Origin: Paracoccaceae bacterium
Lineage (GTDB): Bacteria > Pseudomonadota > Alphaproteobacteria > Rhodobacterales > Rhodobacteraceae
NCBI GenBank assembly: GCA_026709265.1
Contig: JAPOTI010000091.1
Location: 17,451-81,450, forward strand
Direction of reading: 5' to 3'
Length of the DNA stretch: 64,000 bases
Position 1 is the first letter of the stretch; every line of letters starts with the position of its first letter. The position numbers and the translations under genes were made by a program. Of the stretch, positions 4,864 to 64,000 are shown in pieces. Below the pieces are notes generated by a model, which made no database searches, had not been told where the DNA came from, and worked only from the letters and a program-made list of their open reading frames with translations.

Positions 4864-4971
4864 GGCAAGATCTTTCGGGTTCAAATACGGGCAGATTGTG
4901 GTGCCGTGGTGACTTTGATGCATTCATGCGTGGCCGCGATTGTTGCAACCTTCCACGCCTGTCAATCAGTC

Positions 4972-5071
4972 GGGGATTATATACTTAACTACCCAAACCA
5001 CTACATATTCTATTATCAATTACTCGTAACCACTACGTATAGTACGATGGGTAGTCAGGTATATAATCCCC
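4972..5071. mobile_element. 100 bp AT-rich MITE (variant family member) with 8 bp target-site duplication
   Basis: Terminal inverted repeats are GGGGATTATATACTTAACTACCCA and TGGGTAGTCAGGTATATAATCCCC (24 bp, 2 mismatches). The element is flanked by a perfect direct repeat AATCAGTC at 4964-4971 and 5072-5079. No coding capacity. Confidence 0.75.
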
Positions 5072-5259
5072 AATCAGTCTATGCTGTCTTGACTGCGGTT
5101 GCACCTCTTTTGCTGTTTGTTCTTGAATAGGAACATAACTGTTTGTTGATAATGAATCTCTGGATTTGATCAAACAACATATGAGATTCTGAGATAGTGG
5201 TGCGGGAGATTGGAGAAATGGATTGAAAGGTCAGAAATCCCTTGCCCACCCGCTCCCAT

Positions 5260-5287
5260 AAATAAAGGGCGGCCAAAGCCGCCCCCT
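5260..5287 (-). terminator. Rho-independent terminator of porin paralog A
   Basis: On the minus strand: GGGGGCGGC-TTTG-GCCGCCC followed by TTTATTT, about 25 nt after the stop codon. Confidence 0.6.
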
Positions 5288-5311
5288 CAAATCTCTTATC
5301 CTGACCAGTGA

Positions 5312-6829
5312 TCAGAATTTCATGGTGATACCCAGATCGGCCACCGCGTTGCTGTCCACTGAGCCCGCACCGGCTTTCAGGGTCGCACCGCCACCCAGAT
5401 CATGGGAGAAACCGACACCGAAAGCGTCGACGGTGGTGGAGGACTTGGCGCCCCATTTCAAGGTTGTGTTGTCACCGTCTTGTTTGAGTGCATCACCATC
5501 ATCTCCTGTGGTTTCGTAATACGCTGCAACGCTTTCTTTTTTGTGCTGTGCAGCAACCAAGACAAGTGAAGTGGCTTCTGACATTTGATAGCTGAGATCA
5601 ACACCCATCGCTTGATTCTTCAGGTCGGGCTTGTTTGCTCGTGTGATATAAGTTTGATCTGCGTTCTCTTTGGCTGCCGCTGGTTTCAAAGCCTCATTAT
5701 CGGCTTCATCATGATCGCTATCGGTTGAGTAGAGAGCGTTCATTGAGATCTGGCCTTGCGTAAAGCCCATACCGATCGACATGACGCCTTTGCTATCGAA
5801 ACCAGCGCCAAAAGTGACCGGCTCAACATTGAAGCTGAAACCTGCGGCCCATTCGGCATCACCCGCTTTATCTCCGTAGGAGATCGCGACTGAGGCGACA
5901 CCAAAGTCCCCGTCATAACGAACCTGTTTGGCCGATTTCCCGTAGACACCTTCGGCCACATCGTCGATGCCGATGCCGTCAAATCCGGGGTCAGCCAGAC
6001 CACCCGCGAGCTTGTCAGCCGCATCCAGATCAGAACCAATCGTCAGCTTGTGCATGTCCATCGAGATATACACTTCGCCGTGATTGCCGACTGTTTGCCC
6101 GGCATCAGGATCGAAAGTCGCGGCTGTCGCGGCTGTCATCGGGCCATCACCGGGACCAATTTTGTAGATGGCCGCCCCGCCTTCAGCGGTTGCATTGTAG
6201 ACCCAGTTGTTTTCATCTCCCGTGAGGCTAACCACCTCAGGCTTACCGTCTATGACAATAAGGGCCTTGTTTTGACCATCCGTACCGGCTTTAAAGTCTA
6301 CTACAAATTGACCTTCGCCCTCTGCAGTGGTGTCTGTGTTCACGAGAATTCCTGTAATCTTTCCATCTTTAACTGTGACAACCCGTTTTCCAGCAGTCGT
6401 CACCGTATCAAAAATAAGAGCTTCGACACTTCCTTGAACTGCTTCCGTTAAGCTGTCCAAGTCTGCAATTGCCGCATCAGGCAAAGGTTCCGGATTCCCT
6501 GGGGTGGTACCTGCTACGAACCCGGTTTTGAGCTTCACTACTTCCATCGCTGCTTTCGCACCTTTTCCGGCACCCGTCACGGACTCCGTGTTATCGATGC
6601 TGACACTTCCACCGAAGCCAATCCCGCCGTCCGTTGTACCGGAAGCCGAGAACTTAATATCGAACTCATGATGAAAGGCCAGGGCACTTTTGCCCGGCAC
6701 ATCATTCGCCTCGTTATACTTCACCCCGAAGTTCGCTTCCCCGCTGATGGAGACGCCACCGCCGTCCATCGCGAAAGCACTGCCGCCTGCCACCATCGCG
6801 GCGGCGGCAAGTAGAGAGAGTTTTCTCAT
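5312..6829 (-). CDS. Outer-membrane porin, paralog A (general porin fold with a large inserted loop)
   Basis: Signal peptide MRKLSLLAAAAMVAGGSAFA. Porin-like ISGEANFGVK start, alternating beta-strand pattern, C-terminal ...DLGITMKF ending in Phe. Start set at the ATG at 6829, not the track start at 6961. Confidence 0.8.
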   Translation of the reverse strand: MRKLSLLAAAAMVAGGSAFAMDGGGVSISGEANFGVKYNEANDVPGKSALAFHHEFDIKFSASGTTDGGIGFGGSVSIDNTESVTGAGKGAKAAMEVVKLKTGFVAGTTPGNPEPLPDAAIADLDSLTEAVQGSVEALIFDTVTTAGKRVVTVKDGKITGILVNTDTTAEGEGQFVVDFKAGTDGQNKALIVIDGKPEVVSLTGDENNWVYNATAEGGAAIYKIGPGDGPMTAATAATFDPDAGQTVGNHGEVYISMDMHKLTIGSDLDAADKLAGGLADPGFDGIGIDDVAEGVYGKSAKQVRYDGDFGVASVAISYGDKAGDAEWAAGFSFNVEPVTFGAGFDSKGVMSIGMGFTQGQISMNALYSTDSDHDEADNEALKPAAAKENADQTYITRANKPDLKNQAMGVDLSYQMSEATSLVLVAAQHKKESVAAYYETTGDDGDALKQDGDNTTLKWGAKSSTTVDAFGVGFSHDLGGGATLKAGAGSVDSNAVADLGITMKF

Positions 6830-6959
6830 GTGTTTCTGTCCTATTATGTCAAGGAATGGACAGAGATCCTCCACCGTCGCAAAGAGACGCAGAATCAGAA
6901 GAAGAGGGTTGGTGAATTGACAGCTGTTGTCGGGTGATGCGGAAAGCTCCGGGATGACC
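6741..6959. repeat. Left arm of a perfect 219 bp inverted repeat (porin promoter, 5' UTR and first ~30 codons)
   Basis: In manual alignment, the reverse complement of 6741-6959 equals 9781-9999 with no mismatch. Weaker similarity continues outward to about 7040 on the left and 9638 on the right. Confidence 0.95.
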
Positions 6960-7189
6960 ACAAGGATCGCATCACGGATTCATGGGGATCTCACAGACAC
7001 GCAATCTTTATGATGACATCCCGTTTCAATGGTCACGGGGAACCGCTCCCCAGGATTCTTACCCTGTTTGTCGCCAATTCTCAGGTTAATTGACGCGCCA
7101 TACTCGCAGCCAAGACACGAAAAACCTATCTGTGGCGGGCGATGATCGGCCCCGCTGCTGAGTTATCAGATCCACAGCTGAGAGATCTT

Positions 7190-7480
7190 CTGGCGTGGAC
7201 TGACTGAGACCCGGCAACGCCCACCCTCAAAGACATCCTCCTCGAACCTTGAACCCCGCCGCCTGCGCGGCCACCTGCCCCCACGTCATCTTCAAAGTCC
7301 ATCCCCACCTTGCCAGTTCATCACCCCACGACGATTCCGCCACCCGGATTCGCTGTGCCGGAACAAAACGATCCGCCAAATGGCCGCGTCAAACGGGCTG
7401 AAACCGGAATTAGCGGGAATTTCTGTAGATGGTGGCGGTGCCTTGTCTTGCCGCGTGCAGCCCTGTAGACTTCGGCCATC
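7190..7480 (+). repeat. Copy 1 of a diverged ~290 bp repeat (its partner is at 53400-53690 on the opposite strand)
   Basis: Manual alignment with the reverse complement of 53400-53690. The core at 7215-7365 matches with only scattered substitutions. The flanks match with indels, including a ~40 nt insertion in copy 1. Confidence 0.7.
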
Positions 7481-7532
7481 ATGATCCGCCCGGCTGGTTG
7501 ACCCTTGGCGGACCCGGGATTAACGTGCGGGA

Positions 7533-7796
7533 ATGGAAGATGAACCGACACCTCACCAACTCTCCGAGCGGATCGTTCGACTGGAAGGTGAACTGAAAGC
7601 GCAGGAGGAACGCATGAACACGGCGAAGGCGGAAAACGAGACGTTGAGAGCGGACCTCGCCGCAACCATGTCCGGAATGCGGACTGATATTGCGGGTTAC
7701 CGCGAAGACGCGGCGCGGCGGGAGACCCGCCTGATCCTGGCCATGGCAGGGATGATTGCCTTGGCAATCACCATTCTCGGCCTGTGGTTGGGATAG
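7533..7796 (+). CDS. Small coiled-coil protein with a C-terminal transmembrane helix (XhlA-like architecture)
   Basis: MEDEPTPHQLSERIVRLEGELKAQEERMNTAKAENETLRADL... followed by LILAMAGMIALAITILGLWLG. This is an architecture call only. Confidence 0.45.
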   Translation: MEDEPTPHQLSERIVRLEGELKAQEERMNTAKAENETLRADLAATMSGMRTDIAGYREDAARRETRLILAMAGMIALAITILGLWLG

Positions 7797-8056
7797 CCCG
7801 TAACTGTGGGTAGATTCCAACGAAGGTACGTCAAGTCCCACAGGATGGGGTTGGTTCAGGAAAGGGCAGGATCCTACGTTAAGGTTTCCTCGCAACAAAG
7901 GTCCATGGTGCGACAGAGGATGGATCCGCGCCGGAAACGTCATGAACTGGCCAAAGGCAAACAGGCAGCGTAAAGAGGCAGGAAACTATCCCGCGATGGG
8001 CTCATTATTGCCGTTTGGACTTCCGCGGGCACGATTGATCACCGGAGGCTGGCCCC

Positions 8057-9628
8057 ATGACCCGTCAACGCCTGCCCATTGGCATCCAGGACTTCGCCCG
8101 GCTCCGGCAAACCGACAGCTACTATGTCGACAAGACGCCGCTGATCCGGGACCTGATTGAGCGGGGCGATCACTGGTTTCTCTCCCGGCCCCGGCGGTTC
8201 GGCAAGAGTCTGCTGGTGGACACGCTCAAGGCGCTGTTCGCGGGGCAGGAGGAATTGTTCCGGGGGCTGGACATTCATGATCACTGGGACTGGTCGGTCA
8301 CCCACCCCGTGGTGCGATTGAGCTTTGACAGGAAGTATGACGGGCCCGAGGATATCGAACGTAACCTCGCCAATCAACTCGGCCTGATCGAACATGCGGC
8401 CGGATTGGATCCTCCCAACCCCGCGGAAGCCCCTCCCGAACGTTTGCGAACTCTCCTCTACCACCTTCATGGGAGGTCAGGACAGCGGGTCGTGGTCCTC
8501 GTCGATGAGTATGACAAGCCGATCCTGGACGGGTTGCCTGACCTGGATCGGGCCCGCGCCAACCGGGAGGCGCTGCGCAGTGTCTACGGCATCATCAAGG
8601 ACAGCGCGGAGTATGTCCGCTTCGTTTTCGTCACCGGGGTCAGCATGTTCTCCAAGGTCAGCCTGTTCTCGGACATGAACAATCTCAAGGATATCAGCCT
8701 GGATCCCCGCTTTGCCACGATCTGCGGCTATACCGATGCCGATATCGACACCGTGTTCGCCCCGGAACTCGCCGGGCTGGACCGGGATGAGATCCGCTCC
8801 TGGTACAATGGCTACAACTGGCGGGGGGAGACGCGGCTCTACAATCCCTTCGATGTCCTCTTGCTGTTGGATAACCGGGAGTTTGAGCCCTACTGGTTCG
8901 AGACGGGCTCGCCGACCTTCCTGTTCGAGACCCTCAAGGCCCAGTCCATCAACCCGATGGAACTGGAGAACCGGATGGCCGACGAGTCGCTGGTGTCAAC
9001 ATTCGAGATCGATGACATTGACGTCAAAGCCCTGTTGTTCCAGACGGGTTATCTGACCATCACAGATGAGCAGAGTGAGGGGTTCGACACGCTCTATCAG
9101 CTCGACTATCCCAACCAGGAGGTGCGGATCAGTCTGAACCGGGGATTGCTGCAGTCTCTGGGCAAGACGGTCACGGAAGCGCGGGGCCAGGGACGTGATC
9201 TCTGTGCGCTTCTCGAAGCCAACGACTTCGCCGGCTTTGCCGAGACCCTCAAGGCTTACCTGGCCAGTATTCCCTATGCGTGGCACAACAACGATCTGGC
9301 GCGCTATGAGGCCTGGTCTGCCAGCCTGCTGCAGATGTGTTTCCGCGCCATTGGTGTCGATATGCGCGCCGAGGAGGCGTCCAGCCATGGGAGCGCCGAC
9401 ATGGTGGTCGAAACAGGCGGGCAGGTGTTCGTGCTGGAATTCAAGATGGCGGAGACGGACGCGGACATTGAGACGAAGATGGCAGAGGCGTTCACCCAGA
9501 TGCGGGATCGGGGCTATGCGAATCGGTACCGGGATCGCGATGAACCCATCCATCGGATCGCGGTGGTCTGCGGGCGCGAGGCGCGCAACCTGCTGGAGGT
9601 GCGGACAGAACAGGTGAACAGCTCCTGA
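8057..9628 (+). CDS. AAA-ATPase-like domain fused to a C-terminal PD-(D/E)XK nuclease-like domain
   Basis: The N-terminus LPIGIQDFARLRQTDSYYVDKTPLIRDLIE...FLSRPRRFGKSLLVDTLKALF and VLVDEYDKP match the predicted AAA-ATPase family. The C-terminus GSADMVVETGGQVFVLEFK fits a D...E.K nuclease core. Confidence 0.8.
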   Translation: MTRQRLPIGIQDFARLRQTDSYYVDKTPLIRDLIERGDHWFLSRPRRFGKSLLVDTLKALFAGQEELFRGLDIHDHWDWSVTHPVVRLSFDRKYDGPEDIERNLANQLGLIEHAAGLDPPNPAEAPPERLRTLLYHLHGRSGQRVVVLVDEYDKPILDGLPDLDRARANREALRSVYGIIKDSAEYVRFVFVTGVSMFSKVSLFSDMNNLKDISLDPRFATICGYTDADIDTVFAPELAGLDRDEIRSWYNGYNWRGETRLYNPFDVLLLLDNREFEPYWFETGSPTFLFETLKAQSINPMELENRMADESLVSTFEIDDIDVKALLFQTGYLTITDEQSEGFDTLYQLDYPNQEVRISLNRGLLQSLGKTVTEARGQGRDLCALLEANDFAGFAETLKAYLASIPYAWHNNDLARYEAWSASLLQMCFRAIGVDMRAEEASSHGSADMVVETGGQVFVLEFKMAETDADIETKMAEAFTQMRDRGYANRYRDRDEPIHRIAVVCGREARNLLEVRTEQVNSS

Positions 9629-9780
9629 ACACGGGGTCCACGTGACCATTGAAACGGGGACCGTCACAGAAACTGAACGTCTGTGCTGTCCCAATGAATC
9701 CTTGGGAACGAAAGTTCAACGTTCCTGCGAGTGAGGCGACCCATCGGGAACTCGTGATGAATCCGTGACGGGGGTCTTCC

Positions 9781-9999
9781 GGTCATCCCGGAGCTTTCCG
9801 CATCACCCGACAACAGCTGTCAATTCACCAACCCTCTTCTTCTGATTCTGCGTCTCTTTGCGACGGTGGAGGATCTCTGTCCATTCCTTGACATAATAGG
9901 ACAGAAACACATGAGAAAACTCTCTCTACTTGCCGCCGCCGCGATGGTGGCAGGCGGCAGTGCTTTCGCGATGGACGGCGGTGGCGTCTCCATCAGCGG
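9781..9999. repeat. Right arm of the perfect 219 bp inverted repeat
   Basis: Reverse complement of 6741-6959. Confidence 0.95.
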
Positions 10000-11608
10000 A
10001 GAAGCCAACTTCGGGGTGAAATTCGCCGAAAGCGATGACGACTCCAAGAGCGAACTGCAGTTCCACCATGAGTTCAAGGTGACCTTTGCGGCCTCCGGCA
10101 CAACGGACGGCGGAATTGGTTTCGGCGGTAAAATGACGCTGGATAACACGGAGAGTGTGACCAGCGGGAAAGTAACCCCGGCGAAGACGGGTTACATTGT
10201 GACCGCAGATGATTTGGATGCTGCCGGACTCAAACGTCTTGCCGCACGTTTTGGATTTAGTCCCGTCGGCTTAAAAGAAGGCGATATCATTGTCAGTGGC
10301 AGCAAGACAAACTTCTCGGGGTTTGAGCAGGTCAAATCGGCTGATATTCCGGGGCATTTCGAAACAAAACCACGGTCTGCCACAGTCGGGGACACGATTT
10401 TCTTGAACACCGGCACTACATTTACCCGAGCAGCAGACGATAGCAGTCCTACTACCTTTACTGTGGTCACTGCTGTTGCTGCGGCTGGCGGTGCAGAGAT
10501 TACTGAAGACGCGGAATTCACAACGGGTAACGTTCTAACTATCAATGCGGCAGGTGACACTCTCACGGTCGTAGCAGATCAAGATGCATTTGATGCTTTA
10601 TCTGCGGAGGCACAAGCAACGTCGATTATTGCCGCAAATGCGAATGCACGTTATCGGATTCTCAATGCTGGTCATACATATACAGTGACTGAAAGTACGC
10701 GCATCAGCGATCAAGACGTCATTAATGCCCGCTCACAAGCCTACATTGATGGCCTGTCCGCATCGGTTGCCGCTTCCGACAAGCAGAAAGTCAACAATCA
10801 CGGCGAAGTCTATATCTCGATGGACATGCACAAGCTGACGATTGGCTCTGACCTGGATGCCGCCGACAAACTGGCAGGTGGTCTGGCCGATCCCGGATTT
10901 GACGGCATCGGCATCGATGACGTCGCCGAAGGTGTCTACGGGAAATCGGCCAAACAGGTCCGCTACGATGGCGACTTCGGTGTCGCCTCAGTCGCGATCT
11001 CTTATGGCGACAATGCCGGTGATGCGGCCTGGGCCGCCGGGTTCAGTTTCAATGTGGAACCCGTGACCTTCGGAGCTGGTTTTGACAGTCTGGGAGTCAT
11101 GTCAATTGGCATGGGCTTTACCCAAGGCCAAATTTCGATGAACGCCTTGTACTCCACCGACAGCGATCATGATGAAGCTGACAATGAAGCCATCGCCGAT
11201 GTCGCAAAGGCGCGGATTAAAGACAGCGCAGATTATAATGCCAAGATTGGCGGTCTGAATAACGCTTCAAAAGTCGGCAATAAACCGGACCTGAAAAACC
11301 AAGCCATTGGCGTGGATGTCAGCTACAAGATGAACGAAACAACGTCCGTTGTTTTGGTAGCCGCGCAGCACAAGAAAGAGTCCGCGCGTTGGAGTCAGGC
11401 TTGGACAGGAACGACTGTAGGAACTGGTGCTGATACAGACCTCAAGAGAGCCCCTGCCGACGACAAATGGGTCACCACCTCCACCACCGTGGACGCCTTC
11501 GGAGTCGGCTTCTCACATGATCTCGGCGGCGGGGCGACCCTGAAAGCCGGTGCGGGCTCGGTGGACAGCAACGCGGTGGCTGACTTGGGTATCACCATGA
11601 AATTCTGA
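9911..11608 (+). CDS. Outer-membrane porin, paralog B
   Basis: Same signal peptide and N-terminus as paralog A. The barrel core is almost identical at protein level (NHGEVYISMDMHKLTIGSDLDAADKLAGGLADPGFDGIGIDDVAEG... differs from A at only three residues) and the C-terminus is identical (...GGGATLKAGAGSVDSNAVADLGITMKF). The ~210 aa middle segment is unrelated to that of paralog A. Confidence 0.8.
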   Translation: MRKLSLLAAAAMVAGGSAFAMDGGGVSISGEANFGVKFAESDDDSKSELQFHHEFKVTFAASGTTDGGIGFGGKMTLDNTESVTSGKVTPAKTGYIVTADDLDAAGLKRLAARFGFSPVGLKEGDIIVSGSKTNFSGFEQVKSADIPGHFETKPRSATVGDTIFLNTGTTFTRAADDSSPTTFTVVTAVAAAGGAEITEDAEFTTGNVLTINAAGDTLTVVADQDAFDALSAEAQATSIIAANANARYRILNAGHTYTVTESTRISDQDVINARSQAYIDGLSASVAASDKQKVNNHGEVYISMDMHKLTIGSDLDAADKLAGGLADPGFDGIGIDDVAEGVYGKSAKQVRYDGDFGVASVAISYGDNAGDAAWAAGFSFNVEPVTFGAGFDSLGVMSIGMGFTQGQISMNALYSTDSDHDEADNEAIADVAKARIKDSADYNAKIGGLNNASKVGNKPDLKNQAIGVDVSYKMNETTSVVLVAAQHKKESARWSQAWTGTTVGTGADTDLKRAPADDKWVTTSTTVDAFGVGFSHDLGGGATLKAGAGSVDSNAVADLGITMKF

Positions 11609-11631
11609 CCACGGGTCAGGATAAGAGATTT

Positions 11632-11665
11632 GAGGGGGCGGCTGAGAGGCCGCCCTCTTTTTTGT
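11632..11665 (+). terminator. Rho-independent terminator of porin paralog B
   Basis: GAGGGGGCGGC-TGAG-AGGCCGCCCTC followed by TTTTTT. The sequence is related to the paralog A terminator. Confidence 0.65.
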
Positions 11666-11949
11666 GAACTTTCAGTTGTGTTGATGGGTGCGCTCCACAA
11701 GCGATGTGTCTTTGGACTGGGTTGAAGTGATCGCCGTTTGCAATTTGATTGATTGAGGGCGGGTGGGTCGGGCCACAATTTCTGAGACTGATGCTGTCCT
11801 TTCGAGCAGATCCGAGCTTTGCCGTGTCATTCCATGGGATCTGGATGATGCCAGGCAGTTTGATGACATGAATTGGACTTGAAACTGTCTGAACTCTGGT
11901 GTAGCTCTTGCATTCGTATGCAAACAGTGGGTCTGGCTTTTCGAGGGAC

Positions 11950-13002
11950 ATGGCCACAATAGAGTTACGAAATATCACCAAACGCTGGGGGAATTTTACC
12001 GGCGTTGAGCGGTTCGATCTGACCGTCGCTGACCGTGAATTTCTCGTTCTGCTCGGACCTTCGGGCTGCGGCAAGACCACCACCATGCGGATGGTGGCCG
12101 GGCTCGAGGATGTGACCGAAGGCGAAATCCGTATCGACGGCAAACGCGTCAATGAACTCGACCCCAAAGACCGGGACGTGGCCATGGTGTTTCAATCCTA
12201 TGGTCTCTATCCCAACATGAATGTCTTCGAGAATATCCGTTTTCCGCTACGTGTGCGCAAGATCGATCCGGCTTTTCACGAGGAACGGGTCCGGCGCGCC
12301 GCGGCGATGGTCGAACTCAATGACTTCCTGCACCGCAAGCCCGCCGAACTTTCCGGCGGCCAACGCCAGCGGGTGGCCCTGGCCCGTGCAATCGTGCGCG
12401 AACCCAATGTCTTTCTGATGGATGAACCCCTGTCCAATCTCGATGCCAAGCTCCGCGTGTCAACCCGCGCCCAGATCAAGAATCTCAGCCATGAACTCAA
12501 GGTCACCACCCTCTATGTCACCCATGACCAGATCGAGGCGATGACCCTCGCAGATCGCGTGGTGGTGATGAATAAAGGCGTGGTGCAACAGGTGGGAACC
12601 CCCTCAGACATCTATGATCGCCCGGCCAATACATTTGTCGCCGGTTTTATCGGCTCACCCGCCATGAACCTGATCAATGGCGAATTGCATGACGGAACAT
12701 TCCGGGCCGAACATATCGAGATCAATGGGCTGACAGCACCGAACGGCAACGTCACATTGGGATTTCGTGCCGAAGACGCGCGCGTGGACACGGGAAACAG
12801 CGAGATTGCCGCGCCGATCTATACCATTGAACTGCTCGGTGAAGCGGTGATGCTCACCCTGCGCGCGGGCGACGCCCTGATATCGGTGAAAGCGACCAAG
12901 AATTACCGGGCCGGGATCGGCGATAGCGTCAATGTCAAGGTGCCACCTGAAATCTGTCGTCTGTTCGACGCGGAGTCAGGCCAGGTGATTGAGACCGGTT
13001 AG
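11950..13002 (+). CDS. ABC transporter ATP-binding protein (MalK/UgpC type)
   Basis: Walker A GPSGCGKTT, signature LSGGQRQRVALARA, Walker B FLMDEPLSNLD, and a C-terminal regulatory-domain extension. Confidence 0.85.
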   Translation: MATIELRNITKRWGNFTGVERFDLTVADREFLVLLGPSGCGKTTTMRMVAGLEDVTEGEIRIDGKRVNELDPKDRDVAMVFQSYGLYPNMNVFENIRFPLRVRKIDPAFHEERVRRAAAMVELNDFLHRKPAELSGGQRQRVALARAIVREPNVFLMDEPLSNLDAKLRVSTRAQIKNLSHELKVTTLYVTHDQIEAMTLADRVVVMNKGVVQQVGTPSDIYDRPANTFVAGFIGSPAMNLINGELHDGTFRAEHIEINGLTAPNGNVTLGFRAEDARVDTGNSEIAAPIYTIELLGEAVMLTLRAGDALISVKATKNYRAGIGDSVNVKVPPEICRLFDAESGQVIETG

Positions 13003-13093
13003 TCGGTCGCATGGAGCCGCCCGATATGGCGGAAAATCAATAGGGCCGGGCAGGTGATGTTTCGGTCACAACGCAATGAGAGGAGAATATCCG

Positions 13094-14302
13094 ATGAGGT
13101 TTTTCAAACTTTTGGCCGTGGGTGCCGTGGCACTGAACTCAGGCGGTGCCTTTGCCGGCTGCGCCTATGAGAATGATGTGCCCATCAAGTCGCTTTCGGC
13201 AGGATTTGAGGCGTGGAAAGCGGTCACAGAGGCGATGGCCGAATGCGGCAATCTCGAAGCGGAACTGGATCAGGAATTTCGGACCAAACAACCCGCTGCC
13301 TTTGCCGCGGACCCGTCTCTCTACCATATCGGTGGAGTCTCGAACGGCACGTTCACCCCGCTTTTCGATGCCAAGACCATCCGCCCGCTGGATGATCTCG
13401 TCGCAAAATACGGCCAGCAACTCAAACCCAACCAACTCATCAGGGTCGATGGCCAGACCTGGGCAATCGCCATGATGGTCAACGCACAGCATCTCATGTA
13501 CCGCAATGATATCTTTGCTGATCTCGGGATCACACCGCCCACGACCTATGAGGAATTCCTGGCGGCGGCAGAGACCATCCAGAATGCCGGTGTCGTCGAT
13601 TACCCGGTGGGCGGCACGTACAAGACAGGCTGGAACCTGGCGCAGGAATTCGTCAACAATTTCTTCGGCCACGGCGGTGATTTCTTCGACGACAACAATA
13701 TGCCGACCATCAACAATGAAGCCGGCATTGCAACGCTCGAGCTGATGAAGGCACTGACAGACTATATGGATCCTGAATATCTGACATCGGACTCCACCTA
13801 TGTGCAGCAGCAGTTCCAGCAGGGAAAAATCGCCATGTCCAATTTGTGGGCCTCGCGGGCAGCCGCAATGGATGATCCCAATGAGAGCACGGTGGTCGGC
13901 AAAGTGACAATGGCCGGTGCCCCGCAAGGGCCGGGCGGGACCGCATCCACGCTCTGGTGGGACGGAATCGTCATTGCCGCCAATATTTCAGATGACGCGA
14001 CCGATGCGGCTTTCCGGCTGGCCATGGAAGGGATGGATACCGACATGGTCACCGCCAATAACGATGCGGCTGTCTGGCTGATTGACGGCTATGTCGCCGG
14101 ACCCGCCGCAGCGGGGGCTGCCGCTACGGCTGCATCGGGCGCACGACCGTATCCATCCTTGGCGGCCATGGGGCTGATGCATACCGCGCTGGGCTCCGGC
14201 GTGTCGGATTATCTGACCGGTGCCAAGGATGCCACGACCACACTGGCGGATATCGAGGCGGAATATCTGACGGCCGCCCGGGATGCCGGTCTGATCAACT
14301 GA
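13094..14302 (+). CDS. ABC transporter periplasmic substrate-binding protein (family 1, sugar/polyol type)
   Basis: Signal peptide MRFFKLLAVGAVALNSGGAFA. Size and position within the ABC operon. Confidence 0.75.
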   Translation: MRFFKLLAVGAVALNSGGAFAGCAYENDVPIKSLSAGFEAWKAVTEAMAECGNLEAELDQEFRTKQPAAFAADPSLYHIGGVSNGTFTPLFDAKTIRPLDDLVAKYGQQLKPNQLIRVDGQTWAIAMMVNAQHLMYRNDIFADLGITPPTTYEEFLAAAETIQNAGVVDYPVGGTYKTGWNLAQEFVNNFFGHGGDFFDDNNMPTINNEAGIATLELMKALTDYMDPEYLTSDSTYVQQQFQQGKIAMSNLWASRAAAMDDPNESTVVGKVTMAGAPQGPGGTASTLWWDGIVIAANISDDATDAAFRLAMEGMDTDMVTANNDAAVWLIDGYVAGPAAAGAAATAASGARPYPSLAAMGLMHTALGSGVSDYLTGAKDATTTLADIEAEYLTAARDAGLIN

Positions 14303-14391
14303 ATGAATGTGAAGGGCACCTGACACGGTGCCCTTCCTGTGATCGCATGGATGTATCGACGGTTCGGACAGATCGCGGGGAGAGCTAGAGA

Positions 14392-15414
14392 GTGAAATTC
14401 AAAACTTTCGCCGCATTTGTTGGCCCATCAATATTCCTGATGCTGGTTTTCATCGCCTGGCCACTGGCCAACGTGTTGTGGCAGAGTTTTCATGTGACCA
14501 GTGTCAAATTCGAGCAATCCGAAGTTGAGGTCTGTACGCCGGGTTTTTTGACCTCAACCTGTACGGTTGAGGTCCGCATGCAGCCGATCCTGGATTCATA
14601 CGGGGATCCTGTCACCGAGACCAAATTTGTCGGCTGGCAGAGCTATCGCAACGTGCTCGAGCCTGCACGATTCCTTGCCGGTTTACAGGATCTGAGTTGG
14701 GAACAGGTGATGGTGATTGATTTTTGGAAAGCCTTGCGATTCACCCTCACCTTCACCCTCATCACACTGCCGCTGGTGATCGGTGTGGGCCTGCTGATCG
14801 CCCTCGCTGTGAATAACGCAATCCAATCGTTGCGCGGGCAGATCATCTTTGTCTCTTTGCTTCCTTTCATCATCACACCGGTGATCGGCGCTTTGTCCAT
14901 CCGCTGGCTGTTTGTGGGTGACGGCATTCTGACAGCGTTCCTGGAATGGCTGCTGAAGGCCGATATCGCGATGCTCGCCAATCCCTGGACCCTCGAACTC
15001 CTGATGATGTTTTACCGTGTCTGGCACGTCGCACCTTTTGCCTTCATTATCCTCTATGCCGGGTTGCAGACGGTCAATCACGATACGCTTGAGAGCGCGG
15101 TGATCGATGGGGCCAGTCGGTTTGAACGCCTGCGTTTCGTGACCATCCCGCATCTTATGCCATTGATCATATTCATTGCGCTGATTCACCTCATGGACTC
15201 CTACAGGGTTTTTGAAGAGATCGTCGGATTCTCTTCGCAGGCACATGTCATTTCCCTGCAATGGCTGACCTATGATCTGCTCACGCCTGATGATGCCGGC
15301 AATCGTGCCATCAGTCGGGCCTCGGCAAGTGCCATGCTGACCATGATCGGTATTGTGGTGATCCTGATTCCGCTGCTCGGCAAGACCTGGCGGGACCATA
15401 AGGGGGTGTCATGA
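14392..15414 (+). CDS. ABC transporter permease
   Basis: Multi-pass membrane protein with an EAA-like loop (ESAVIDGASRFERLRFVTIP). GTG start. Confidence 0.8.
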   Translation: MKFKTFAAFVGPSIFLMLVFIAWPLANVLWQSFHVTSVKFEQSEVEVCTPGFLTSTCTVEVRMQPILDSYGDPVTETKFVGWQSYRNVLEPARFLAGLQDLSWEQVMVIDFWKALRFTLTFTLITLPLVIGVGLLIALAVNNAIQSLRGQIIFVSLLPFIITPVIGALSIRWLFVGDGILTAFLEWLLKADIAMLANPWTLELLMMFYRVWHVAPFAFIILYAGLQTVNHDTLESAVIDGASRFERLRFVTIPHLMPLIIFIALIHLMDSYRVFEEIVGFSSQAHVISLQWLTYDLLTPDDAGNRAISRASASAMLTMIGIVVILIPLLGKTWRDHKGVS

Positions 15415-16574
15415 TGAGGGCGGTCCCGCGCGCCATGCGACAGTCGCCACAGCTTCGGGCCATCTCCGCGATCTTTCTCGTGTCCTGGTGCGTCATCGCA
15501 GCATTTCCAATCTTCTGGATTGCTGTCATGAGCTTTAAATCACCAATTGACGCCTTTGCTTCCAACCCGTTGCATGTGATCTTTGGCCCGGCAACCCGCG
15601 CGGCCGGTCAGGGACTTTCAATCCTTGACATCATTGTTGGACTCGGCGTGTTATGGGGCTTCATCCATTTTGCCATGCGCGATTTGCCGCGTTATGCAAG
15701 GCAGTGGGCACCGTTCGGGAATCTGCTGCTCTACTGGTTGGCCGCAGCGCTCGTTTTTGCTGTCATCTTTATCGCCGTATTTTTCGGGTTGTTGCCGCCA
15801 CTATTGCGGATCGCCAATGGATTGTCAGGGCCCATCGGTTCACCGATTATCGGTTTCACCGTCGAACATTATCAGTCGATATGGATCGACAGCAGCTTTT
15901 ACCGGAACTTCATCAATTCGATGATGGTGACCGCAGGTGTCGTCGTCATCTCCCTGACAGTTGGCACACTCGCCGGCTATGGGATCGCGCGGTCAGGGTC
16001 CCATCTCGCCTTCTGGCTGCTGATCATTGCATTGATATTTCGCGCATTGCCGCACGCGGTCCTGGTGGCCGGATATCTTCCGGTGTTCATCAACTCAGCG
16101 GAATTGCTGCGCCCGATCCTCGGTGACCTGTCACCGACCTTTTATGGCAAGCCGGTTGCCGTGATTGCGGTGATGGTGGCGATCAATCAACCCTTTACGA
16201 TCTGGATGCTGCGGTCTTTCTTCCAGAATATTCCCAGGGATCTGGACGAGGCCGCACGGGTTGACGGCTGTACGCATTTCCAGGCCTTTCGCTGGGTCAT
16301 CATGCCGGTGATGTGGCCCGGTGTCATCACGGCCGGACTGTTCAGCTTTCTCCTGGCGTATAATGACTTTTTGGTGGCTTCACTGCTGCTGGACGCCCAA
16401 AACCAGACCATGGTTCCGGCCATTGCCGGATTCTTCAATCGTGAAACCACGACGACAGATCAGGTGCGGGCCGTCGCAGCCGCTGTCTCAATCACCGCAC
16501 CTTTGTTCCTGTTGATCATGGTCTTTCAGCGCCAGATCGTCAGCGGACTCACCGCCGGTGCGGTAAAAGGGTAG
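15411..16574 (+). CDS. ABC transporter permease (second subunit, long N-terminal extension)
   Basis: Its ATG overlaps the stop of the preceding permease (ATGA). EAA-like loop DEAARVDGCTHFQAFRWVIMP. Confidence 0.8.
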   Translation: MMRAVPRAMRQSPQLRAISAIFLVSWCVIAAFPIFWIAVMSFKSPIDAFASNPLHVIFGPATRAAGQGLSILDIIVGLGVLWGFIHFAMRDLPRYARQWAPFGNLLLYWLAAALVFAVIFIAVFFGLLPPLLRIANGLSGPIGSPIIGFTVEHYQSIWIDSSFYRNFINSMMVTAGVVVISLTVGTLAGYGIARSGSHLAFWLLIIALIFRALPHAVLVAGYLPVFINSAELLRPILGDLSPTFYGKPVAVIAVMVAINQPFTIWMLRSFFQNIPRDLDEAARVDGCTHFQAFRWVIMPVMWPGVITAGLFSFLLAYNDFLVASLLLDAQNQTMVPAIAGFFNRETTTTDQVRAVAAAVSITAPLFLLIMVFQRQIVSGLTAGAVKG

Positions 16575-16579
16575 GGGAC

Positions 16580-17167
16580 ATGACAGATCCATCCCATGAC
16601 ACATGCGGACAGAGGGGAGCCCGGCCCGATCAGGCCCCGCTCACCAAAGGTGCCGACCTGTCTCAAACGGCACAGACCCGTCAGGTGATTGAATCCATGG
16701 TCAATGCACTGAACGACCATCGGATTGACGATATTGGCGAGTTCTTTGCCGATGACATGACCTGGCGGGGCAATTTCGGTTGCGGCGTGAAACGTGGATT
16801 GAAAGAATTCCAGGACAATTGGCAACGCCCGTTTCAGGCCGCTTTCTCCGGGAAAGTCTGTCTTGATGAAGCCCGCCTCTATATGGGTGAGTGGGCCGCC
16901 GCGTTCGGCCGTCAGGAAGCCATCCATAGCGGTGATTTTTTTGGCATTGCGGCCACCGGGAAACGCGTGACCATTCGCTACATGGATTTCTGGCGGGTGG
17001 CAGACGGCAAGATCGCTGACAATTGGGTCATGGTCGATTTCGCCGATGTCCTGCACCAATTGGGGGTTGATATCTTTGATGGCCAGGGTTGGGAGCGGTT
17101 TGACCGCTCCGATGCCGAAGCCCCACAGCCCGACACTGAAACCAAGCCACAACGGGGTGGAAAATGA
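16580..17167 (+). CDS. SnoaL-like / predicted ester cyclase family protein
   Basis: The pattern NDHRIDDIGEFFADDMTWRGNFG...IRYMDFWRVADGKIADNWVMVDF is typical of NTF2-fold ester cyclases. Confidence 0.6.
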   Translation: MTDPSHDTCGQRGARPDQAPLTKGADLSQTAQTRQVIESMVNALNDHRIDDIGEFFADDMTWRGNFGCGVKRGLKEFQDNWQRPFQAAFSGKVCLDEARLYMGEWAAAFGRQEAIHSGDFFGIAATGKRVTIRYMDFWRVADGKIADNWVMVDFADVLHQLGVDIFDGQGWERFDRSDAEAPQPDTETKPQRGGK

Positions 17168-17204
17168 AGCCAAATCCCCATGATCAGACAGGGACGGACA
17201 CGTC

Positions 17205-18524
17205 ATGGAATATCTGAAGCGCGGACAATCGGAAGACGAACGTGCCAGGCAGGCCGCGAAGGTCAGTGACATTGTCGCACGCAGCCTGGAGACCATCGAA
17301 CAGGGTGGCGATGCCGCGGTGCGGGAGATGTCAGAGAAATTCGACAACTGGTCACCGCCGTCTTTTCGCATGAAGGAAAGTGACATTGAGCATTTGGTCA
17401 ATTCACTCTCCAGACAGGACCTGCATGACATTCGCTTTGCGCAGGAGCAGGTCCGAAACTTTGCCCGCATCCAGCGCGAATCCATGCATGATGTGGAAAC
17501 CGAAACCCTTCCGGGGGTAATCCTTGGCCATCGTCATATTCCGGTCCAGTCGGTGGGTTGTTATGTGCCCGGGGGAAAATTCCCGATGGTCGCATCGGCA
17601 CATATGTCGGTTGTCACGGCCGATGTTGCCGGTGTCCAGCGTATCGTCGCGGCGACACCGCCGGTGAATGGCGAACCCAATGCTGCTGTCATCGCCGCGA
17701 TGCATCTTGGCGGCGCCGATGACATCTATCTGCTCGGCGGAATTCAGGCGGTTGGCGCCCTCGCACTGGGAACAGAGACCATGACTCCGGTGGACATGCT
17801 CGTGGGTCCCGGAAATGCCTTTGTGGCCGAGGCAAAACGCCAGCTCTTCGGTCGGATCGGGATCGATTTGCTCGCCGGTCCCACCGAGACTCTGATTGTT
17901 GCTGATGACAGCGTCGATGCCGAACTGTGTGCCACAGATCTGCTGGGGCAGGCCGAACACGGAGACGACTCCCCTGCTGTGCTGATCACCAATAGCCGCC
18001 GGCTGGCCGATGAGACCCTGGCAGAGGTCAAGCGGTTGCTCCGTCAATTGCCAACGGCAACCACCGCTGCGCGCAGCTGGTCCGATTACGGAGAGGTCAT
18101 CCTGTGTGACAGTTATGAAGAGATGTTGCAGGAAGCTGAAAGGATGGCCTCGGAGCATGTTCAGATCATGACTGTGCGCGACGACTGGTTCCTGGAGCAC
18201 ATGACCCATTACGGCGCTCTGTTCCTCGGTCCACGCACGCATGTGGCAAACGGTGACAAGGTCATCGGGACAAATCACACGCTTCCAACGCGCCGGGCCG
18301 GGCGCTACACTGGCGGACTGTGGGTGGGCAAGTTCCTGAAAACCCATACCTATCAGAAGATCCTGACCGACGAGGCGGCAACTCTGGTCAGCGGCTATTG
18401 TTCGCGGCTCTGCGCCCTTGAGGGATTCACCGGTCACGGTGAACAGGCCAATATACGGCTGCGCCGCTACGGCGGCCTCAATATTCCGTATGGCGGTGTG
18501 GCAGCAGCTCAGGACAGGAGTTGA
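17205..18524 (+). CDS. Histidinol-dehydrogenase-family NAD-dependent dehydrogenase (HisD paralog, possibly sulfopropanediol-dehydrogenase-like)
   Basis: HisD-family blocks: [60 protein letters not shown]. The catabolic context argues against the biosynthetic hisD. Confidence 0.8.
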
Positions 18525-63655: not shown

Positions 63656-63801
63656 CACCGTCACTGCGAGACGCCAAACGGCCCGCACCTGTTCCACTGA
63701 GGCCTGTTGACAATTGCCGTGCGTTTTGAGCGCTGGGCGTGTCTTTGTGTCGGCATTGCACGCCGAAGGTGGCGGCACGAGCCGACGCGGTGGGTGACAG
63801 G

Positions 63802-64000
63802 ATGAATGCAGATCGCACAGTTTTGACGGATGAGATGGGGGCGCGGGTGGTGCCGCTGTGTCCGGGCCAGGTGACGGATCCGGGGTGCACGGCGGTGGAC
63901 AATCGTCTGTGTCTGGAAGGGGTTCTCTGGCGGTTCCGGACAGGCACACCCTGGCGTGATCTCCCGCCGCATTTCGGGCGGTGGACCCGTGCCGTCACGC
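63802..64000 (+). mobile_element. IS5-family (IS427/IS1031-like, DUF4096 N-terminus) transposase gene, 5' part, running off the window
   Basis: Manual translation from the ATG at 63802 gives MNADRTVLTDEMGARVVPLCPGQVTDPGCTAVDNRLCLEGVLWRFRTGTPWRDLPPHFGRWTRAV, the hallmark N-terminus of this transposase group. Confidence 0.8.

Follow-up and report, generated by a model that had tools for sequence, protein, structure and literature searches.

Probable diversification by recombination of a multi-copy Rhodobacter-type porin family in sponge-associated Paracoccaceae

We analysed a 64,000-nucleotide stretch of DNA from a Paracoccaceae bacterium (assembly GCA_026709265.1, contig JAPOTI010000091.1, positions 17,451 to 81,450 of the forward strand; hereafter the window, with positions counted from its first letter), in which two divergently oriented porin genes, porin A and porin B, share identical inverted 5' ends. 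With considerable confidence, we regard the two genes as belonging to a lineage-specific, multi-copy set of Rhodobacter-type porins, in which a constant frame carries variable surface segments and which has been diversified by homologous recombination between copies. The parts of the two genes on which this view is built are the following.

5312-6829, minus strand: porin A, 505 amino acids (aa) from MRKLSLL, with a type II insert in loop L2 (open reading frame, Porin_4 match, AlphaFold2 model).
9911-11608, plus strand: porin B, 565 aa, with a type I insert in L2 (open reading frame, Porin_4 match, AlphaFold2 model, Foldseek).
5687-6088, minus strand: conserved core of porin A, strands 4-11 with the constriction loop L3 (nonsynonymous/synonymous divergence, dN/dS, against B).
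10793-11194, plus strand: conserved core of porin B, strands 4-11 with the L3 counterpart (dN/dS against A).
6089-6574, minus strand: L2 insert of porin A (residues 86-247), a predicted all-beta domain with a conserved start and end and a hypervariable middle.
10163-10792, plus strand: L2 insert of porin B (residues 85-294), predicted mixed alpha/beta, with a conserved N-terminal subdomain, a variable middle and a conserved closing helix.
5438-5686, minus strand: further variable loops of porin A, L6 at 5633-5686 and L7 at 5438-5527, with conserved strands 12-13 between them.
11195-11482, plus strand: further variable loops of porin B, L6 at 11195-11281 and L7 at 11387-11482, with conserved strands 12-13 between them.
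5266-5442, minus strand: conserved 3' block of porin A, the last ~43 codons and a terminator hairpin at 5266-5288 (92% inverted repeat).
11478-11659, plus strand: conserved 3' block of porin B, C-terminal codons followed by a hairpin and T-run at 11632-11659 (3'-end alignment).

Both open reading frames scored well above the Pfam cut-off of 27 bits for Porin_4 (PF13609; 54.6 bits for porin A and 54.1 bits for porin B), and both products carry a Sec signal peptide (MRKLSLLAAAAMVAGGSAFA, followed by MDGGG) and end in GITMKF, with a C-terminal Phe. Segment-wise divergence (from a global protein alignment and Nei-Gojobori counts) revealed an alternation of conserved and unrelated parts. In the core (residues 248-381 of A and 295-428 of B), protein identity was 96%, with a dN of 0.03 and a dS of 1.25; 58 of the 65 DNA differences fell at third codon positions, and no stretch of exact DNA match exceeded 35 bp. 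Across the last 41 codons dN was 0 and dS 0.52, and across the first 37 codons dN was 0 and dS 0.12, with three synonymous changes, all of them past a 219-bp tract of perfect identity that is considered further below. Between the conserved blocks lie 168 aa in porin A and 216 aa in porin B that could not be aligned with each other. The 3' ends are again duplicated (5277-5442 against 11478-11643, 92% identity, including a GC-rich hairpin and then a T-run). An earlier note on this DNA, made from its letters and open reading frames, had described two divergent porin genes of 505 and 565 aa, a barrel core and C-terminus that were nearly identical despite many synonymous changes, an unrelated segment between them and a duplicated 3' untranslated region (UTR) and terminator, and our analysis bore out each of these descriptions. 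The barrel is under strong purifying selection, with a dN/dS ratio (omega) of ~0.03.

To place the variable parts on the protein, we used AlphaFold2 models of full-length A and B, built on family alignments (mean predicted local distance difference test score (pLDDT) 78.8 for porin A and 77.0 for porin B, with the barrel mostly at 85-95). Both models are 16-strand barrels with a giant insert between strands 3 and 4, and their best Foldseek matches in the PDB were 2POR and 1PRN (target-normalised TM-score up to 0.72), although whole-model searches were dominated by the barrel, in the PDB and in a viral library alike. In porin B, the connection between strands 1 and 2 (residues 41-46) is L1, that between strands 3 and 4 (81-292) holds the giant insert, and that between strands 5 and 6 (313-349) is a conserved loop with two short helices and a DPGFDGIG motif, which the model identifies as L3, the pore-constricting loop of classical porins; the other two variable segments connect strands 11 and 12 (418-462) and strands 13 and 14 (496-518). 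Because the variable segments occupy odd-numbered connections, as L3 does, they are predicted to be L2, L6 and L7 and to lie on the extracellular side; unlike them, L3 does not vary. The proposal of the earlier note that the variable segment is extracellular is thus consistent with the models and strand parity, which put the insert in L2, on the same side as L3.

The L2 inserts are large, and outside the family they had no detectable relatives. Where A and B have segments of 168-216 aa, an ordinary 311-aa relative (P0068) has ~15 residues. A Pfam scan of the L2 inserts at E values up to 1 returned no credible family, and a search of the B insert against 1.84 billion representative proteins recovered family members only, plus a weak match to a PDZ-repeat protein. 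Residues ~94-140 of porin B (10190-10330) form a conserved N-terminal subdomain of the type I insert, modelled with a pLDDT near 90 and containing the motif GLKEGDIIVSG; the match to the PDZ-repeat protein, which is eukaryote-like, was weak but repeated and came through a GLKEGD-type motif, and Pfam called no PDZ domain. We treat this resemblance as a weak lead.

The two genes proved to have many relatives in a narrow group of genomes. Back-translated porin B motifs, searched in species-representative genomes, identified 11 loci, all in OZ244915.1 (the 3.38-Mb chromosome of a Paracoccaceae metagenome-assembled genome), with 12 intact and 2 disrupted porin copies. A search of 5.8 billion protein clusters returned 67 close relatives (E below 1e-48), beyond which scores fell to E 1e-17 and the matches were ordinary porins; all 67 came from Paracoccaceae/Rhodobacteraceae metagenome-assembled genomes, at least 14 of them from one 3.55-Mb chromosome. 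The sequencing runs that hold the window sequence are sponge metagenomes. All family copies examined were of full length and had a conserved leader and a start codon of their own, and no partial cassette, silent donor or template copy of the variable regions, as in a diversity-generating retroelement (DGR), was found in the window. A DGR target was rejected as an explanation of the variable parts, given that single template-free copy and variation that includes large indels, not point changes; no reverse-transcriptase-like open reading frame was noticed in the window, where the list of open reading frames was read by eye without a hidden Markov model scan. Across the family, the L2 inserts fall into at least two types beyond those of A and B, and members of one type agree at the ends of the insert but have a hypervariable middle. 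The two types present in the window are as follows.

Type I (as in porin B): 210-293 aa, beginning TESVTSGKVTPAKTGYIVT and ending SQAYIDxLSASVAASDKQKVN.
Type II (as in porin A): 150-170 aa, beginning TESVTGAGKGAKAA and ending GPGDGPMTAATAATFDPDA.

Because A and B carry different L2 types of a larger family, they are not the diverged halves of a simple local duplication but two different members of a multi-copy family. Of the old duplication under purifying selection that had been suggested earlier, the purifying selection stands, whereas a single old local duplication does not fit a family of at least 14 genes with different L2 types.

Different segments of one gene had different nearest relatives. 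(Loci in related genomes are cited by number: L003, in OZ244915.1, is syntenic with the right flank of the window, with flanks at 95.1% identity, and L013 is syntenic with its left flank, at 95.3%.) From the signal peptide to strand 3, porin B shared 95-96% DNA identity with its positional orthologs in L003 and L013, but in L2 these orthologs reached only 54-59%, and the closest sequence for L2 (81%), L6 (91%) and strands 12-13 (94%) was at another locus, L002. L6 of porin B was also close to that of P0002 (90%, the closest in a further comparison) and L7 closest to that of P0003 (75% in protein), and P0002 itself combines an A-type L1 with a B-type L2. The closest relative of porin A, P0032, stands in another chromosomal context (L012) and is 99% identical in the core but 37% in L2, with dS rising from 0.25 in the core to more than 2 in L2. 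Between porin B and L002, omega reached 0.66 in the middle part of L2, with a value of 0.39 in L7; at the conserved insert ends and in the barrel it was 0.05-0.10. Types of signal peptide, L1, L2, L6 and L7 were thus reassorted among the paralogs of sponge-symbiont Paracoccaceae.

The flanks of the two genes gave a complementary view. On the left, 95% identity to L018 covers 5071-5428, which includes the terminator and the last ~40 codons of porin A, and then drops to 74%; on the right, the 95.1% identity with L003 starts at 11470, inside the C-terminal block of porin B. Because 95% orthology stops within the last ~120 bp of each gene, whole gene bodies have been replaced. On the pepF side, where four genomes could be compared (the window, L013/L017, L018 and L019, the last with the allele of L018), the porin occurred as three alleles (505, 502 and 575 aa), and the DNA that follows it differed in all four. 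Together, these comparisons support a cassette-like exchange of surface segments, with loop types reassorted among paralogs. The earlier note had proposed diversification or cassette exchange of a surface loop, and this was borne out by the reassorted loop types and the different gene bodies between 95%-identical flanks.

In a mechanism that could produce these patterns, the homology arms for ordinary RecA-type recombination between copies would be supplied by the constant parts of each gene, from leader and signal peptide through the barrel strands and L3 to the C-terminal strands and terminator, around extracellular parts that vary (L1, a folded domain of 120-290 aa in L2, L6 and L7). Non-reciprocal gene conversion would homogenise short tracts, and whole bodies or single loops would be replaced or reassorted, leaving strains with 95%-identical flanks but different porins at the same site.

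Rearrangements on a larger scale also appear to have taken place at these genes. The 3.55-Mb genome holds orthologs of both flanks of the window: L014 corresponds to the right flank (10733-17599 at 92.5%, extending into the MalK locus), and L018, on the same chromosome, to the left flank (95.2%). pepF and MalK are ~65 kb apart and on the same strand in the 3.55-Mb chromosome, but 7 kb apart and on opposite strands in the window, and from these coordinates and strands we infer that the two genomes differ by at least one inversion whose ends lie close to porin genes. Between L013 and L014, from one sponge sample, the porin and a 3-kb island were 99.9% identical, but the DNA upstream of ~-36 was completely different; between L018 and L019, also from that sample, 99.5% identity reached ~-80 of the pepF-side porin, and the DNA beyond was unrelated. 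The breakpoints recorded so far (~-36, ~-80, -130, +89, the border of strand 3 and L2, and the C-terminal block) favour general homologous over site-specific recombination, because those at the 5' end fall at different positions.

A broader alternative can be built on the same comparisons, in which the 5' block (~-40 to +110) is a portable recombination handle of all MRKL-class porins and drives a chromosome-wide shuffling of porin bodies, aided by a tyrosine recombinase and perhaps by an AAA-ATPase/PD-(D/E)XK nuclease. It would explain why porins that are 99.5-99.9% identical join unrelated upstream DNA from ~-36 or ~-80, and why the pepF and MalK flanks, divergent and 7 kb from each other in the window, share an orientation and are separated by ~65 kb in the 3.55-Mb genome. 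In L005, L014 and L015, a BrnT toxin gene and a gene for a tyrosine recombinase (PF00589) lie directly upstream of the plus-strand porin; the recombinase is 306 aa long (8847-9767 in L005, 8001-8921 in L014 and L015), the copies from two genomes are 99% identical, and it has more than 1,800 homologs at E values up to 1e-20, those with a named source being mostly from metagenome-assembled genomes of Alphaproteobacteria. The window and L003 contain neither the BrnT gene nor the recombinase. If it were true, a host-associated population would combine porin bodies with new leaders and invert large segments of the chromosome; we consider this alternative unlikely.

Recombination between family copies has left a recent trace in the window at the 5' ends of A and B, which form a pair of inverted arms with older extensions.

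6741-6959, minus strand: identical 5' arm of porin A, comprising leader, signal peptide and the start of strand 1 (exact match to 9781-9999).
9781-9999, plus strand: identical 5' arm of porin B, comprising leader, signal peptide and the start of strand 1 (exact match to the A arm).
6960-7055, minus strand: extension of the A arm, older and diverged (upstream class U1), with CCCGTGACCATTGAAACGGG at its end (inverted repeats, alignment with a 63-bp indel).
9623-9780, plus strand: extension of the B arm, older and diverged, formed by the 3' flank of an AAA-ATPase-like gene (inverted repeats, alignment).

An exact reverse-complement comparison of the arms matched 219 of 219 bases, with no extra matching base on either side, as had been claimed earlier. 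Counted from the ATG, the tract spans -130 to +89, and it contains the signal peptide and the start of the first strand; the promoter and 5' UTR also ascribed to it are presumptive, a consensus scan of the arms having located no promoter, and a conserved TTGACA is unlikely to be a -35 box because it lies only 18-23 nt from the ATG. Because the proportion of synonymous differences (pS) in neighbouring conserved coding blocks is ~0.6, the chance of identity at the ~22 synonymous sites of the tract is ~0.4^22, near 1e-9 by our arithmetic, and the identity is beyond chance. The tract edge is sharp (~8 mismatches within the next 24 nt), and past it a weaker upstream homology extends, with the 63-bp indel, to ~7055 and ~9623, where it ends at the shared motif CCCGTGACCATTGAAACGGG (~7020-7055 and 9623-9658).

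To ask how this identity arose, we aligned the region from -160 to +111 in ten MRKL-class copies from three genomes. The A and B arms have a haplotype that combines two upstream types and was absent from L003, from L013 and from all other fetched copies. The porin pair of L013 was 94.8% identical across the aligned 5' region, the minus-strand porin of L003 had a wholly different upstream class, and in this region the L003 and L013 counterparts were ~11-12% off the window but ~5% off each other. A second case was found between L002 and L006, which lie more than 1 Mb apart in OZ244915.1 and share 223 exact bp at -111 to +112. The conversion of the arms is recent, because A and B share a derived haplotype that two related strains lack, and the alignment thus supports the recent gene conversion that the earlier note had suggested for the 5' end. 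The arms therefore seem to have formed in two steps: the DNA upstream of B, where the AAA gene has its 3' flank, would first have been copied in front of A, the two versions having now diverged (82-86%) outside the core, and a very recent event would then have made -130 to +89 identical.

Upstream arms of class U1 that stand without a porin gene were also observed, at 6032-6671 of L010, where they form an inverted pair ~280 bp apart, and at 16591-16749 of L013; these orphan arms are probably footprints of past rearrangements.

The earlier note had pointed out that the identical inverted arms could invert the 2.8 kb between them, which they are able to do in principle. Two features occupy that segment.

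8057-9628, plus strand: gene for a 523-aa protein with AAA-ATPase_like and PD-(D/E)XK (PDDEXK_9) domains (Pfam E 2.5e-57 and 1.1e-12).
7429-7860, plus strand: small inserted element of 432 bp with an 87-aa coiled-coil/transmembrane open reading frame at 7533-7796, absent from L003 and L005.

The AAA gene has a GC content at third codon positions (GC3) of 0.79, against 0.56-0.68 in its neighbours, and a metagenome depth roughly 10-20 times single-copy, and it had no PADLOC or NCBIfam match. In L013 (9451-9020) the 432-bp element occurs, at 96% identity, in the opposite orientation and beside a Tn3 transposase fragment; we rejected this as a flip of the whole segment, given that the neighbouring PDDEXK_9 remnant keeps its orientation and that the Tn3 fragment adjoins. 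The module as a whole (a minus-strand porin, a plus-strand AAA gene and a plus-strand porin) was found in the window, L003, L013, L005, L014 and L015, with the AAA gene of L013 reduced to the PDDEXK_9 remnant next to the Tn3 fragment.

A programmed switch, in which the arms serve as crossover sites (RecA-dependent, like the sap locus of Campylobacter fetus, or site-specific, like shufflons or Mycoplasma vsa) and flipping changes the expressed porin or makes a chimera, would account for perfect 219-bp inverted repeats placed over the leader and the 5' coding end, and it could draw on the tyrosine recombinase gene (234 bp upstream of the plus-strand porin in L005, L014 and L015), on the co-resident strains that differ upstream of a 99.5-99.9% identical porin gene and on the opposite relative orientation of the pepF and MalK flanks in the window and the 3.55-Mb genome. 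The details of the locus nevertheless make such a switch decidedly improbable. No recombinase was found between or beside the arms in the window (open reading frames and Pfam), the middle segment encoding only the AAA/PDDEXK_9 protein and the 87-aa frame. Each gene starts at an ATG of its own behind an identical 130 bp, so a crossover within the arms would alter neither a coding sequence nor a proximal leader and would swap only more distal upstream DNA; with a start codon and conserved leader in every family copy examined, there are no silent cassettes to bring into expression; and the breakpoints fall at varied positions, with no single core site. In assembled modules the AAA gene pointed toward the plus-strand porin in six of six cases, which are not independent of one another, and the Logan short-read unitigs consulted for orientation (seven sponge metagenomes and three further runs) break at repeats. 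We thus found no evidence for an inversion of the 2.8 kb, and a programmed inversion switch is unsupported.

Rather than by recent conversion, the 219-bp identity might have been maintained by selection on DNA or RNA (a promoter, an operator, a small RNA target or mRNA structure). A block of ~45 nt around the start codon, TTGACATAATAGGACAGAAACAC-ATG-AGAAAACTCTCTCTACT (-38 to +20, ~6810-6867 and 9873-9930), is nearly invariant in 11 of 11 MRKL-class copies (three genomes), including those with unrelated DNA further upstream, and it contains a 6-bp inverted repeat, CTGTCC-N16-GGACAG, overlapping the likely ribosome-binding site, which could be an operator or a translational hairpin. Such selection would account for the ~45-nt core but not for 219 unchanged bp: the counterparts in L003 and L013 differ in the same region, both from the window and from each other, synonymous sites of the signal peptide vary in other copies, and the sharp edges of the tract are the signature of a conversion tract. 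We judge maintenance by selection to be very unlikely. No Rfam match was obtained in the arms or the middle segment even at E values up to 1.

Finally, that the arms are an artefact of assembly or polishing, with reads from paralogs collapsed onto both copies, is suggested by the many near-identical 5' ends in the family, by a metagenome depth over conserved parts several times single-copy and by a shared 90-bp unitig at only ~0.8-1.5 times flank unitig depth rather than a clean 2 times, but it is hardly credible given that de Bruijn unitigs from three sponge metagenomes (different samples, one of which may be the window's own source) span all four arm borders without mismatch, with A-side and B-side flank unitigs overlapping the same arm unitig by exactly k-1 at inner and outer borders, that none of the other fetched copies has the specific mosaic of the arm haplotype, and that long exact 5' tracts also occur in the complete 3.38-Mb chromosome assembly.

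Several points weigh against our preferred explanation, a multi-copy porin family diversified by homologous recombination. The evidence for recombination comes from the comparison of assemblies; the window itself holds two copies, and the copy number of its genome is taken from relatives that are ~95% identical. Omega in the variable inserts is elevated but overall below 1, and relaxed constraint combined with recombination would look the same as positive selection. The tyrosine recombinase in three related modules leaves room for a site-specific component elsewhere in the family. Lastly, no RNA sequencing run holding either L2 insert was found.

Two further observations concern the surroundings of the porin genes. 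An AT-rich element of 100 bp (4972-5071), with terminal inverted repeats of 24 bp, lies between pepF and porin A; L013, L018 and L019 lack it, their 95% flank alignment passing directly from 4971 to 5071. It is therefore a recent insertion in the lineage of the window, resembling a miniature inverted-repeat transposable element. At the end of the window, 300 bp (63696-63997) matched two oppositely oriented sites in L001 (18084-18385 and 19010-19298) at 85-88%, which suggests a repeated or mobile element.

The variation may serve surface diversity, through escape from phages, escape from host recognition and phagocytosis, or varied adhesion, and the phage-receptor or antigenic role that had been proposed earlier is plausible. 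One family-bearing relative reached 1367-fold coverage in a sponge sample, and the porin family is a testable candidate for the discrimination of symbionts from food bacteria or for escape from a dense sponge phage load. In addition, the porin genes mark differences in gene order between close strains, which is relevant to the binning and assembly of these genomes.

Among known systems, the protein itself is most like the porins of Rhodobacter capsulatus (2POR) and R. blasticus (1PRN), with which A and B share Porin_4, a predicted 16-strand barrel, an internal L3 with short helices, a signal peptide and a C-terminal Phe; by analogy, A and B may also be trimeric. They differ from these porins in length (505-565 aa against ~290-300 aa), in the folded L2 domain of 168-216 aa and the enlarged L6 and L7, in the dozen or more paralogs per genome (in relatives of the window) against one or two, and in an L2 insert without detectable relatives outside the family. 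They likewise depart from the usual Porin_4 profile of short loops and ~290-360 aa, L2 alone taking up 168 or 216 aa.

In genetic behaviour, the closest analogue is the Bab family of Helicobacter pylori, in which N- and C-terminal homology regions surround a middle variable region, babA, babB and babC occupy several fixed loci with strains differing in the pairing of paralog and locus, gene conversion breakpoints fall ~60-240 bp from the start codon and expression is also phase-varied by CT dinucleotide repeats (PMC4552749). Common to the Bab/Hop proteins and the porins described here are conserved blocks at the 5' and 3' ends with a variable middle between them, paralogs at several loci, and conversion tracts and chimeras. 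The likeness is an analogy only: the protein families are unrelated, the only CT run in the porin genes is a (CT)4 that does not vary in length among copies, and the porins belong to a sponge symbiont whereas Bab belongs to a vertebrate pathogen. Pfam gives Porin_4 only, with no homology to Hop, Msp2 or Tpr proteins, so that what is shared is mechanism and not ancestry.

Anaplasma Msp2/P44 and Treponema pallidum Tpr/TprK are also multigene families of beta-barrel proteins in which segmental gene conversion acts on hypervariable surface segments between conserved ends, an arrangement that the porin family shares. Msp2/P44 and TprK rely on one expression site and many promoterless donor cassettes, whereas the porin copies examined are all full length with their own start codon and leader. 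The sap locus of Campylobacter fetus undergoes RecA-dependent inversion between the conserved 5' regions of opposed sapA homologs, and a single promoter on the invertible segment changes the expressed gene when it flips. Opposed paralogs whose conserved 5' regions bracket a few kilobases are seen here too, but both porins keep the same 130 bp (~230-290 bp related) upstream, and one orientation was found in six modules. A layout of one promoter and silent copies is thus at odds with the porin genes, in which that same 130 bp precedes both A and B and an ATG with a conserved leader is present in 11 of 11 copies.

In full-text literature searches, no account of a porin family of this kind was found. 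Surface-protein families that vary by gene conversion are textbook examples in vertebrate pathogens (Helicobacter, Anaplasma, Treponema and Neisseria), with adaptive immunity as the presumed driver. Sponges have no antibodies, and in this setting the selective agent would therefore be phages, phagocytosis or lectin recognition by the host, or attachment. Together, these comparisons place a variable-surface architecture of the pathogen type in a sponge symbiont and on a classical diffusion porin of the Rhodobacter type; what is new here is the unusual host setting and the unusual scaffold of a known kind of recombining surface-protein system.

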